Assembly: GCF_001677475.2 (NCBI RefSeq)
Contig: NZ_CP015229.1
From: Escherichia coli
Lineage (GTDB): Bacteria > Pseudomonadota > Gammaproteobacteria > Enterobacterales > Enterobacteriaceae
DNA: 64,000 nt
Strand: one strand, 5' to 3'
The position numbers and the translations under genes are program-made. Below the pieces are notes generated by a model. The model worked only from the letters and a program-made list of their open reading frames with translations. It did no database searches and was not told the origin of the DNA. How positions within the stretch are numbered: position 1 is the stretch's first letter; every line of letters starts with the position of its first letter. Shown one piece after another: positions 23,696 through 24,514 of this stretch.

Positions 23696-23911
23696 GATAT
23701 CCAGCGAAGGATGAAGAAAACTTGCGAGGTGTCTCGATGAACTGAAAAATGGCACAGTATAATTTATTCTACAGGTTATATTGGAAGCAAATATTTTAAT
23801 ATTACATATTCAGTGAAGAAATGCGTAATAAAAATATACATTGCACCTCCTGAAAAAATAAATTTTTTATGCTATTGCGTATATTTGTATCTATTTCAAT
23901 GGAATGACAAC

Positions 23912-24514
23912 GTGAATATTAATTACCCTGCTGAATATGAAATTGGAGATATCGTCTTTACATGTATAGGTGCTGCCTTATTTGGCCAAATATCAGCTGC
24001 ATCAAATTGCTGGAGTAATCACGTCGGGATCATTATCGGTCATAACGGTGAAGACTTCCTGGTTGCAGAAAGCCGGGTTCCCCTTTCAACTATCACCACG
24101 CTGTCTCGTTTTATTAAACGTTCTTCTAATCAACGCTATGCTATAAAGCGATTAGACGCCGGGCTTACAGAACAACAAAAACAACGAATTGTTGAACAGG
24201 TTCCCTCCCGGCTACGAAAACTTTACCACACCGGTTTTAAATACGAATCTTCGCGCCAGTTCTGTTCAAAATTTGTCTTTGATATTTATAAAGAGGCACT
24301 ATGTATTCCGGTGGGTGAAATAGAGACGTTTGGAGAACTGTTAAACAGCAATCCAAATGCAAAACTCACTTTCTGGAAATTCTGGTTCTTAGGTTCTATT
24401 CCGTGGGAGCGTAAAACCGTCACGCCAGCCAGTTTGTGGCATCATCCGGGTTTGGTGTTGATTCATGCGGAGGGAGTGGAAACGCCTCAGCCGGAACTGA
24501 CCGAGGCGGTATAA
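23912..24514 (+). CDS. yebB: YaeF/YiiX-family (permuted papain-fold) predicted amidase/peptidase; GTG start
   Basis: 200 aa from (GTG)[17 protein letters not shown]; gene is visibly AT-rich relative to its neighbours; sits between ruvA and ruvC. Confidence 0.8.

Follow-up and report, generated by a model that had tools for sequence, protein, structure and literature searches.

The AT-rich segment between ruvA and ruvC in the window (the whole stretch of 64,000 nucleotides of Escherichia coli DNA that was analysed) is best explained as the eroded remnant of a small low-GC islet, which would have split an ancestrally contiguous ruvC-ruvAB locus and in which a functional gene, yebB, persists with a product of possible lipid-acyl chemistry; this reading as a whole was given a probability of roughly 0.75. 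The gene is an already known one, not a new kind of system. The coordinates of the islet, its genes, the predicted promoters and the flanking sequences are collected in Table 1.

Table 1. Features of the yebB islet and its flanks (positions in the window)
Feature	Coordinates	Strand	Remarks
Islet as surviving in this genome	23707-24515		809 bp, GC 0.400; edges good to a few nt
yebB CDS	23912-24514	+	200 aa, GTG start; annotated; uncharacterised known gene
His37 codon	24020-24022	+	read directly in the window
Glu53 codon	24068-24070	+	read directly in the window
Tyr105 codon	24224-24226	+	read directly in the window
Cys118 codon	24263-24265	+	read directly in the window
yobI	23776-23841	-	21 aa, GC 0.197; RefSeq annotation of matching genomes
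Predicted yebB sigma-70 promoter	23850-23878	+	CTGAAA, 17 nt, TATTGC; weak consensus match
Predicted yobI sigma-70 promoter	23884-23910	-	TTGTCA, 15 nt, TACAAA; unique match in the window
LexA box CTGGATATCTATCCAG in hairpin, then T-run	hairpin 23688-23705, box 23689-23704	-	ancestral edge of the insertion site, outside the insert
ruvA flank	23026-23637	-	annotation
ruvC flank	24516-25037	-	convergent with yebB

The boundaries of the islet were placed by comparison with other occupied and with empty loci, to which homology resumes at 23704-23720. Empty sites have the layout ruvC stop codon, about 12 nt, the LexA-box hairpin GGCTGGATATCTATCCAGCC, a T-run and ruvA, and the islet sits exactly between the ruvC stop codon and the LexA box. 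In all occupied loci the box is conserved 67-69 nt ahead of ruvA, and in the window it overlaps the -35 element of the ruvA promoter (TGGATA, 17 nt, TATCAT; 23703-23675). The stop codons of yebB and ruvC are 1 nt apart, and no terminator-like site was found between them; the insertion took away the terminator adjoining ruvC, and ruvC transcripts are likely to read antisense through yebB. Apart from this loss of a terminator, the understanding of ruvABC is unchanged. Neither terminal direct or inverted repeats bracketing the insert nor an integrase, tRNA or insertion sequence marking its ends was found, and a search of 23000-25200 for Rfam families returned none at E <= 1.

Base composition was calculated for the 58 long ORFs of the window. 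Both GC (0.438) and GC3 (0.393) of yebB were the lowest of all, corresponding to z-scores of -3.2 and -3.1, respectively, against the 57 others (mean GC 0.513, sd 0.024; mean GC3 0.534, sd 0.045), and its GC1 (0.512) was exceeded by that of every other long ORF. An earlier note made from this DNA had described yebB and the stretch upstream of it (23740-23911) as AT-rich in comparison with ruvA and ruvC, and calculation bore this out, the GC of the stretch being 0.256 and that of the entire region described (23740-24514) 0.397, against 0.533 for ruvA and 0.564 for ruvC. The full 205-bp spacer upstream of yebB has a GC of 0.288, and the insert one of 0.400 vs 0.507 for the window. Codon usage of yebB is only mildly low, far less extreme than its base composition: the CAI, computed with Sharp-Li weights, was 0.234 and ranked third lowest, the mean being 0.320 (z = -1.0), and a leave-one-out codon likelihood, which needs no such weights, placed yebB seventh lowest (z = -1.1). 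Of the two measures proposed as a check on the contrast, GC confirmed it (z of about -3), whereas the contrast in codon adaptation proved modest (z of about -1). Three other regions of the window are as AT-rich as the yebB region or more so.

The GTG start assigned to yebB in the earlier note is that of the annotated CDS. Orthologues in other genera have ATG at the codon homologous to 23912 and a common N-terminus, M-x-x-x-Y-P-x-x-Y-E, which stands 11 residues ahead of a conserved GD motif. The longest ORF (23813-24514, 233 aa) was rejected as the true gene, since the orthologues begin at that homologous codon. For yebB, dN/dS ratios of 0.02-0.11 were obtained, and its dS is similar to the values for ruvA and ruvC; these ratios rule out a decaying pseudogene, and yebB is a maintained, functional gene under strong purifying selection. 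It was found in 5,425 of 5,426 complete E. coli genomes, K-12-like genomes included, in line with the earlier remark that a gene present in K-12 is not new. Strong purifying selection together with near-universality in E. coli indicates that yebB does something. The segment was also considered as unusually divergent within E. coli and rejected as such, the whole surrounding 10 kb being at most 99.0% identical to any complete genome. Expression of yebB is probably low because of its GTG start with a weak Shine-Dalgarno sequence, its weak -10 element and the likely antisense read-through from ruvC.

The sequence upstream of yebB had been taken for an AT-rich leader; its AT-richness is real, but it is not just a leader, for it holds the small gene yobI and predicted overlapping divergent promoters. 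An AGGAGG Shine-Dalgarno sequence lies 5 nt ahead of the yobI ATG, and the product matched NCBIfam NF038179 (stress response small protein YobI) over residues 1-21 with 59.3 bits (cut-off 33), the 'stress response small protein' label being taken solely from the RefSeq and NCBIfam names. YobI was reportedly first described by Hemm et al. in 2008 and 2010. The predicted yobI promoter ends 2 nt ahead of the yebB GTG and is arranged back-to-back and overlapping with the predicted yebB promoter, of which the -10 element is TATTAC in K-12 vs TATTGC in the window. Both promoters were assigned from an in vitro SELEX listing (PMC3946193) and by consensus matching; that of yebB was located in the K-12-like locus and read off in the window. 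As a 5′ remnant of orfX, a gene that accompanies yebB in related species (see below), yobI was rejected, because the spacer (23708-23897) has no nucleotide homology to the orfX regions of E. albertii, Salmonella and Citrobacter; the peptide alignment score was reached by 54 of 300 and 37 of 300 shuffles.

The GC of the spacer (29%) and of yobI (20%) would fit a different view of the islet, namely xenogeneic DNA silenced by H-NS, as the earlier note suggested, with yebB essentially unexpressed in normal growth. Nucleoid-protein occupancy is sometimes the cause of sparse transposon insertion. Insertions in yobI are very sparse or zero by TraDIS (PMC5821084), although few would be expected anyway in a gene of only 66 bp. 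Against silencing, genomic SELEX placed the yobI/yebB spacer among the constitutive sites of sigma-70 holoenzyme and did not give it the H-NS mark, which 36% of such spacers received in vitro (PMC3946193), and a sigma-S holoenzyme peak is reported in the ruvA/yebB spacer (PMC5493296). The H-NS high-affinity motif TCGATAAATT is not enriched, the region containing one match with 2 mismatches, which makes the scan uninformative. Strong purifying selection on yebB argues for its expression under some condition, and silencing by H-NS was on balance considered rather unlikely.

Recruitment of yebB to the SOS response, in which LexA at the ruvA operator would also control the divergent yebB and yobI promoters, was regarded as improbable. 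A regulon reconstruction from expression compendia and the high-scoring LexA site predicted the gene as a LexA target (PMC2689187), and the LexA box lies inside the control region common to ruvA, yobI and yebB. However, some 146 bp, with yobI among them, separate the box that overlaps the ruvA -35 element from the predicted yebB -35 element (23850) downstream of it, and by a position test the box is not placed to occlude the predicted yebB promoter. It is also ancestral to the site and older than the insertion.

To return to the islet itself, the ruvC-ruvA junction was surveyed in 80 species-level Enterobacterales loci located with RuvC, 79 of which were informative. The gap was 75-229 bp in 68 of the 79 species (75-125 bp in 61 of these), contained yebB in six and contained other cargo in five. 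The outgroup genera Erwinia, Pantoea, Rahnella and Edwardsiella have the junction empty, with the short linker and LexA hairpin of the other empty sites, whereas Escherichia, Salmonella, Klebsiella sp. and one strain of Pseudescherichia vulneris are occupied at the same point; the junction of the P. vulneris type strain is empty, and presence therefore varies within a species. The comparison proposed in the earlier note for Enterobacteriaceae, made here across Enterobacterales, thus gave a patchy distribution of yebB at the junction, and its suggestion of an old horizontally acquired insert agrees with a site that is empty in most species and occupied at exactly the same point in a few.

The contents of the islet differ among hosts. 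All three of yebB, orfX and orfY occur in Citrobacter sp. FP75. Salmonella has the first two and a fragment of orfY, and E. albertii just the first two; in K. oxytoca orfY alone is left, and the yebB of K. spallanzanii is broken. In E. coli, yebB is accompanied by the 205-bp spacer with yobI and the two divergent promoters. The divergently oriented orfX (about 230 aa) and orfY (about 220 aa) belong to no recognised family, and their products, with long hydrophobic stretches, are predicted to be membrane proteins. The original islet would have consisted of yebB, orfX and orfY, of which different subsets were presumably kept by different lineages.

In every Enterobacteriaceae host the GC of yebB is 5.7-13 points under that of the flanks, whereas in Proteus and Providencia it is 0.4-1.5 points from the host GC; in these two genera, as well as in Budvicia and Enterobacter cloacae, the gene is found in unrelated neighbourhoods. 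No close homologue of yebB was found on a phage or on a plasmid, the plasmid hits being mislabelled chromosomes or chromids, all non-mobilizable. The GC3 of yebB is 0.39 in Escherichia vs 0.50-0.53 in the Salmonella and Citrobacter copies, so that amelioration of the Escherichia gene falls short of that expected for a gene resident since before Escherichia and Salmonella split. A single ancient gain followed by many losses and spread by recombination via the conserved ruv flanks both fit the data.

If yebB were instead ancestral and vertically inherited, its low GC would have to be put down to weak expression, to the composition of the protein or to a local mutation bias, and the species without it would have lost it. 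Such a history would be consistent with dN of yebB, which runs roughly in species order (E. albertii 0.02, Salmonella 0.14, Klebsiella sp. 0.17, P. vulneris 0.22), with the similarity of its dS to that of the ruv genes and with the absence of a mobility signature at the islet. It was nevertheless given little credence, because 68 of the 79 species, the outgroups among them, have the junction empty and this linker and LexA hairpin in place, and repeated precise deletions restoring the exact linker sequence are implausible. The occurrence of yebB at unrelated loci in Morganellaceae and Budvicia, with GC there matching the host, also speaks against it, as does the finding that no other ORF of the window, the poorly adapted ones included, has a GC3 as low as that of yebB. 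Insertion between the ruvC stop codon and the LexA-box hairpin, followed by erosion, is by comparison very probable.

The product of yebB was assigned, with little doubt, to the YaeF/YiiX permuted NlpC/P60 family (Pfam PF05708, MEROPS C92) as a Cys-His-Glu member. Searches gave 156.2 bits against PF05708 Peptidase_C92 (cut-off 27, E 1e-45, residues 10-184) and 405.9 bits against the equivalog NF008547, 'YebB family permuted papain-like enzyme' (cut-off 227, residues 1-199), and the PDB sequence matches agree with the permuted NlpC/P60 family. The AF2 model (pLDDT 94.9) has a papain-like alpha+beta fold matching the solved members of the YaeF/YiiX family. Each of the residues H37, E53, Y105 and C118 is kept in 90% or more of 106 homologues; in an alignment with YiiX they fall on the matching motifs, and their order is the permuted one, with His and the polar residue N-terminal, Cys C-terminal and the signature Tyr kept. 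The permuted papain fold of YaeF/YiiX type that had been read from the letters alone is upheld by the profile matches, and the structure prediction and Cys/His mapping proposed there gave the model and the conserved residues just described. A hydrophobic N-terminus is absent from every YebB orthologue but present in 55 of 93 distant homologues. Being leaderless, YebB is probably cytoplasmic, and, as it lacks the export signal that most of the family have, it is likely to meet its substrate in the cytoplasm or at the inner leaflet of the inner membrane. Searches with PADLOC and PHROGs gave no hit, and no biochemical data on YebB turned up among 57 papers naming it.

In the chemistry proposed here as the most likely, a hydrophobic S1 pocket would hold a fatty-acyl amide or ester, whose carbonyl, stabilised by Tyr105, would come under attack from Cys118, with His37 and Glu53 activating the cysteine; the acyl-thioester formed on Cys118 would then be hydrolysed or handed to an acceptor. 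Bound fatty acid was observed in YiiX, and a hydrophobic S1 pocket, described for YiiX and BcPPNE, is common to the permuted family (PMC3142127); phospholipase activity has been shown for Tox-Act1 and TseH (PMC12994826). By analogy with such relatives, which are 13-28% identical and from which reaction and substrate are extrapolated, the chance that YebB acts as a hydrolase or acyltransferase on lipids, lipopeptides or acyl-proteins, rather than as a peptidoglycan amidase, was put at about even. The distant homologues have no conserved neighbours in common (the Burkholderia homologue adjoins AzlC and LysE exporter genes; that of Cupriavidus, genes for an HTH regulator and a fatty-acid hydroxylase). 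Since yebB stands alone without a conserved partner, genomic context will not reveal its substrate, and biochemistry is needed.

The evolutionary picture is tidy but of local interest: the point of insertion has been mapped precisely, the three-gene islet is decaying, and elsewhere the site holds other cargo. The wider interest lies in yebB as one of the E. coli K-12 genes still awaiting a reaction despite a recognisable catalytic fold, and as a member of a bacterial family, YaeF/YiiX, that is overall without an established substrate. A far-reaching extension, to which we attach a very low probability, is that the ruvC/LexA-box junction is a recurrent landing site of small cargo islets among Enterobacteriaceae, at which a three-gene membrane-lipid module arrived, and that E. 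coli retained the enzyme alone and rewired it beside the newly arisen YobI. If this were true, the module would consist of a cytoplasmic acyl-thiol enzyme and two membrane proteins without a recognised family; yebB would share a mutually exclusive divergent promoter with yobI, whose product would be a small membrane protein, and would sit beneath the SOS operator region of ruvA and be crossed by ruvC antisense transcription; and the activity of YebB on a membrane lipid or acylated protein would be tied to DNA-damage or envelope stress.

Among related proteins, E. coli YiiX (PDB 2IF6) and YebB fall into different NCBIfam equivalogs, the YiiX model giving YebB just 79 bits (cut-off 216) vs 406 bits for its own. 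The YiiX model begins about 15 positions earlier, whereas YebB starts at the leaderless N-terminus described above, 11 residues ahead of GD; the two also differ in genomic location and history, and for YiiX the reaction itself is unproven although a fatty acid co-purified. BcPPNE of Bacillus cereus (PDB 3KW0), crystallised in a closed form with lysine, is 16-18% identical to YebB with a TM of about 0.6. The PLAAT/HRASLS and LRAT acyltransferase-phospholipases (PLAAT4, PDB 7ZOT) belong to the eukaryotic LRAT-like family and not to YaeF/YiiX, carry a C-terminal membrane anchor and are 16% identical to YebB; a Foldseek search did not retrieve PLAAT/LRAT enzymes. The T6SS effectors TseH (PDB 6V98) and Tox-Act1 are toxins that are secreted, accompanied by immunity genes and set in a secretion-system context; YebB shares none of this. 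It is most improbable that YebB is a domesticated or orphaned lipid toxin of this kind, with the membrane proteins of the islet as former immunity proteins or partners; neither a secretion-system or polymorphic-toxin context nor an adjacent immunity gene was found for yebB in the 10 contexts examined, and there was no PADLOC hit.

The islet itself resembles the small islets found at conserved intergenic sites of Enterobacteriaceae in its low GC, its patchy occurrence at one fixed point, its internal gene decay and the fact that other genera carry different cargo there. Unlike these, it is bounded by neither a tRNA nor an integrase, direct repeat or insertion sequence, it measures only 0.8-2.4 kb, and its surviving gene is not strain-specific but near-universal and conserved in E. 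coli.

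Loci around ruvC were retrieved with RuvC from 80 species-level genomes across the Enterobacterales, RuvC, RuvA and YebB were then placed in each, and 79 of the 80 loci were informative. The ruvC-ruvA spacing was 75-229 bp in 68 of the 79 (75-125 bp in 61 of the 68), and the junction without insert (empty site) consisted of the ruvC stop codon, ~12 nt, GGCTGGATATCTATCCAGCC, a T-run, ~55 nt and the ruvA GTG. Judged from this layout, the LexA operator palindrome and T-run look as if they act as both ruvC terminator and ruvA SOS operator. The window has the gene order znuB, ruvB, ruvA, yobI, yebB, ruvC, yebC, nudB, aspS of an E. 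coli-type chromosome segment, and its homology to empty and to other occupied (cargo-bearing) sites resumes at 23704-23720; because the convergent yebB and ruvC have stop codons 1 base apart at the other end, the insert was delimited as listed in the table. It coincides almost exactly with the interval flagged in the earlier note (23740-24514), whose reading as an old horizontally acquired insert was supported by the empty junctions, the readable edges and the low GC content. The LexA box lies 67-69 nt before ruvA in every occupied locus, and the E. coli hairpin, displaced by the insertion, is now 810 bp from ruvC. No flanking repeats, integrase or tRNA were found at the islet, and no close YebB homologue on genuine plasmids or phages.

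Features of the ruvC-ruvA junction in the window and in compared ruv loci (L-numbers; coordinates local to each locus)
Feature	Coordinates	Strand	Details
LexA box	23689-23704	-	CTGGATATCTATCCAG; within hairpin then T-run (23688-23705); overlaps ruvA -35
Insert (islet)	23707-24515		about 809 bp, GC 0.400; left edge from homology, right edge from stop codons
yobI	23776-23841	-	21-aa peptide; RefSeq annotation, NCBIfam NF038179 match
yebB promoter (predicted)	23850-23878	+	CTGAAA, 17 nt, TATTGC
yobI promoter (predicted)	23884-23910	-	TTGTCA, 15 nt, TACAAA; ends 2 bases before yebB GTG
yebB CDS	23912-24514	+	annotated, 200 aa, GTG start
Empty-site examples	L009 2819-2901; L012 5520-5602
orfX/orfY loci	L003 6435-7121; L083 3100-3774; L064 6328-7023 and 7126-7806; L021 5636-6298
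Junction cargo elsewhere	L013 5520-7410; L036 5520-7443; L038 5520-7441; L037 5520-6286; L021 5520-6421		L037, remnant

The presence/absence comparison proposed in the earlier note placed yebB at the junction in few genera, with the junction empty in most sampled. Among the 80 RuvC loci, it was occupied by yebB in E. coli, a divergent Escherichia lineage, E. albertii, two Pseudocitrobacter and Citrobacter sp. FP75, and by a broken copy in Klebsiella spallanzanii; separate look-ups added Salmonella, a Klebsiella sp. and one Pseudescherichia vulneris strain. Presence varies within P. vulneris, the type strain having an empty 81-bp junction (L024) and the other strain an occupied one (L091, on a contig that also carries an IS4-family fragment just past ruvB). 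The junction was empty in eight other Citrobacter loci, Enterobacter, Kluyvera, most Klebsiella and Raoultella, and all sampled Erwiniaceae, Yersiniaceae and Hafniaceae loci. YebB proteins of 64-71% identity occur in Proteus, Providencia and Budvicia, all in unrelated neighbourhoods, as does a second copy in Enterobacter cloacae. The GC content of yebB is 5.7-13 points below its flanks in every Enterobacteriaceae host and, in contrast, within 0.4-1.5 points of the host in Proteus and Providencia, a pattern that is consistent with transfer out of a low-GC lineage and incomplete amelioration since then, and that does not single out a donor.

Two further genes for predicted membrane proteins, named here orfX and orfY, were recognized in related islets; both have long hydrophobic stretches, evolve fast, and gave no match in Pfam or NCBIfam. 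The divergently oriented orfX (228-231 aa; copies 38-41% identical to one another) lies between yebB and the LexA box in E. albertii, Salmonella and Citrobacter sp. FP75. The ~220-aa orfY family, with the same 38-41% identity among its copies, is represented by a 226-aa product in Citrobacter sp. FP75, by the sole cargo of the junction in Klebsiella oxytoca, and by a frameshifted C-terminal scrap in Salmonella (E = 0.003). Both genes are absent from E. coli, and by this gene-content comparison the islet was originally larger and E. coli lost them. In Kosakonia and some Enterobacter the junction holds different, GC-rich (0.58-0.60) cargo with an HTH regulator and an NAD-dependent epimerase-like gene; since unrelated cargo lies at the same spot in other genera, the few nucleotides that lead from the ruvC stop codon to the LexA box look like a recurrent insertion point.

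The compositional contrast of yebB with ruvA and ruvC, on which the earlier note had relied, was confirmed by calculation. GC (0.438, z = -3.2) and GC3 (0.393, z = -3.1) of yebB were the lowest of the 58 long ORFs in the window, as was its GC at the first codon position, and ruvA and ruvC had GC of 0.533 and 0.564. A codon-adaptation calculation had also been proposed; yebB was below the mean, but only mildly, with the third lowest CAI among the long ORFs (0.234, z = -1.0, an approximate figure from Sharp-Li weights) and z = -1.1 for synonymous codon choice by a leave-one-out likelihood that needs no such weights. What sets yebB apart is thus mainly its base composition and less its codon adaptation. 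Three other stretches of the window (about 55051-55860, 35000-36300 and 61500-63600) match or exceed the insert in AT content; the 809-bp segment with the lowest GC in the window (0.347) starts at 55051.

The GTG start noted earlier agrees with the annotated CDS. The longest ORF, from 23813, was rejected as the gene, the orthologue starts mapping to codon 23912: all Salmonella, Citrobacter, Klebsiella, Proteus, Providencia and Budvicia orthologues start at the homologous codon, mostly ATG, and share the N-terminus M-x-x-x-Y-P-x-x-Y-E, 11 residues before an invariant Gly-Asp. Values of dN/dS for yebB were 0.03-0.11 against E. albertii, Salmonella, Klebsiella sp. and Pseudocitrobacter, with synonymous divergence similar to, or somewhat over, that of ruvA and ruvC. 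By these rates yebB is a working gene, clearly constrained despite faster protein evolution (78% identity to Salmonella, where RuvA and RuvC reach at least 95%). A 961-bp stretch with yebB was present in 5,425 of 5,426 complete E. coli genomes, K-12-like strains included. Window positions 19000-29000 had a best identity of 99.0% to any of the 5,426 complete RefSeq genomes, and the window ruvC differed from that of K-12 by dS ~0.21 and zero amino-acid changes. The strain sequenced thus has no near relative in this set and may be a Shigella or belong to an unsampled lineage. In one clinical isolate, AB66, yobI and the first 125 yebB codons have been lost to an IS1 (L002 2671-3607); this natural knockout makes both genes non-essential in that background, despite the TraDIS suggestion of possible yobI essentiality (PMC5821084). 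The observation in the earlier note was real and mostly well read: yebB is an annotated K-12 gene of known family in an ordinary, neatly resolvable old islet.

The "AT-rich leader" of that note is AT-rich (GC 0.256 over the 172 bp upstream of yebB), but it is a compact divergent control region containing yobI (20% GC, with a perfect AGGAGG 5 bases before its ATG) rather than a mere leader. In genomic SELEX the yobI/yebB spacer was bound by sigma-70 holoenzyme alone, and a promoter was proposed for each gene (PMC3946193). The promoters predicted here lie back-to-back and overlap, so that RNA polymerase, if both are real, would occupy one at a time; the predicted yebB -10 is TATTGC in the window versus TATTAC in K-12. 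The divergent Escherichia lineage has an 84% identical spacer (L004 6121-6400) from which the yobI ATG and Shine-Dalgarno sequence are missing, which suggests that yobI arose recently and is confined to E. coli proper; E. albertii (L003 6127-7146) has no sequence homologous to the spacer at all. Homology between the 190-bp E. coli spacer that replaces orfX/orfY and the orfX region was undetectable, and YobI as a relic of the orfX N-terminus was rejected, the similarity being no better than for shuffled peptides.

The insertion parted ruvC from the hairpin next to it in empty-site genomes. Because no terminator-like site was found between yebB and ruvC, ruvC transcripts may run antisense across yebB and sense across yobI up to the LexA hairpin. 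Silencing of the islet by H-NS is plausible from base composition and compatible with the sparse yobI transposon hits (PMC5821084), but the spacer is not marked as H-NS-bound in the genomic SELEX tables (PMC3946193), and we regard it as doubtful; a motif scan of the region was uninformative. yebB has also been predicted as a LexA target from expression compendia and the nearby box (PMC2689187); however, ~146 bp separate this box from the predicted yebB -35, and the box is older than the insertion. A role in SOS- or envelope-linked lipid remodelling, acquired as a three-gene module, is very improbable.

The permuted papain-fold (YaeF/YiiX-type) assignment was upheld by profile matches (Pfam PF05708, 156 bits; NCBIfam YebB equivalog, 406 bits), by an AlphaFold model from 106 homologues (pLDDT 94.9) and by intact catalytic residues in the family-defining permuted order (His37, Glu53, Tyr105 and Cys118, each kept in at least 90% of the 106). 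An exhaustive profile search with YebB gave just 666 clusters (50% identity, E ≤ 1e-3) among 1.84 billion representatives, and the family is therefore small. Genomic context, with other neighbours in each lineage, gave no clue to the substrate. A sequence search of solved structures returned a single match, YiiX (2IF6, E 9e-18), whose crystal holds a fatty acid beside the catalytic Cys, and permuted NlpC/P60 enzymes have a hydrophobic S1 pocket in common (PMC3142127); Tox-Act1 and TseH are phospholipases (PMC12994826). By analogy with this lipid chemistry and that of PLAAT and LRAT, the most likely function of YebB, with a probability of about 0.5, would be that of a cytoplasmic fatty-acyl thiol hydrolase or acyltransferase on lipid, lipopeptide or acylated protein; peptidoglycan amidase activity is unlikely. 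PLAAT and LRAT enzymes act on phospholipids by way of an acyl-thioester intermediate. A hydrophobic N-terminus was found in no YebB orthologue, versus 55 of 93 more distant homologues, so that YebB is probably cytoplasmic, like BcPPNE, for which the same location was proposed (PMC3142127).
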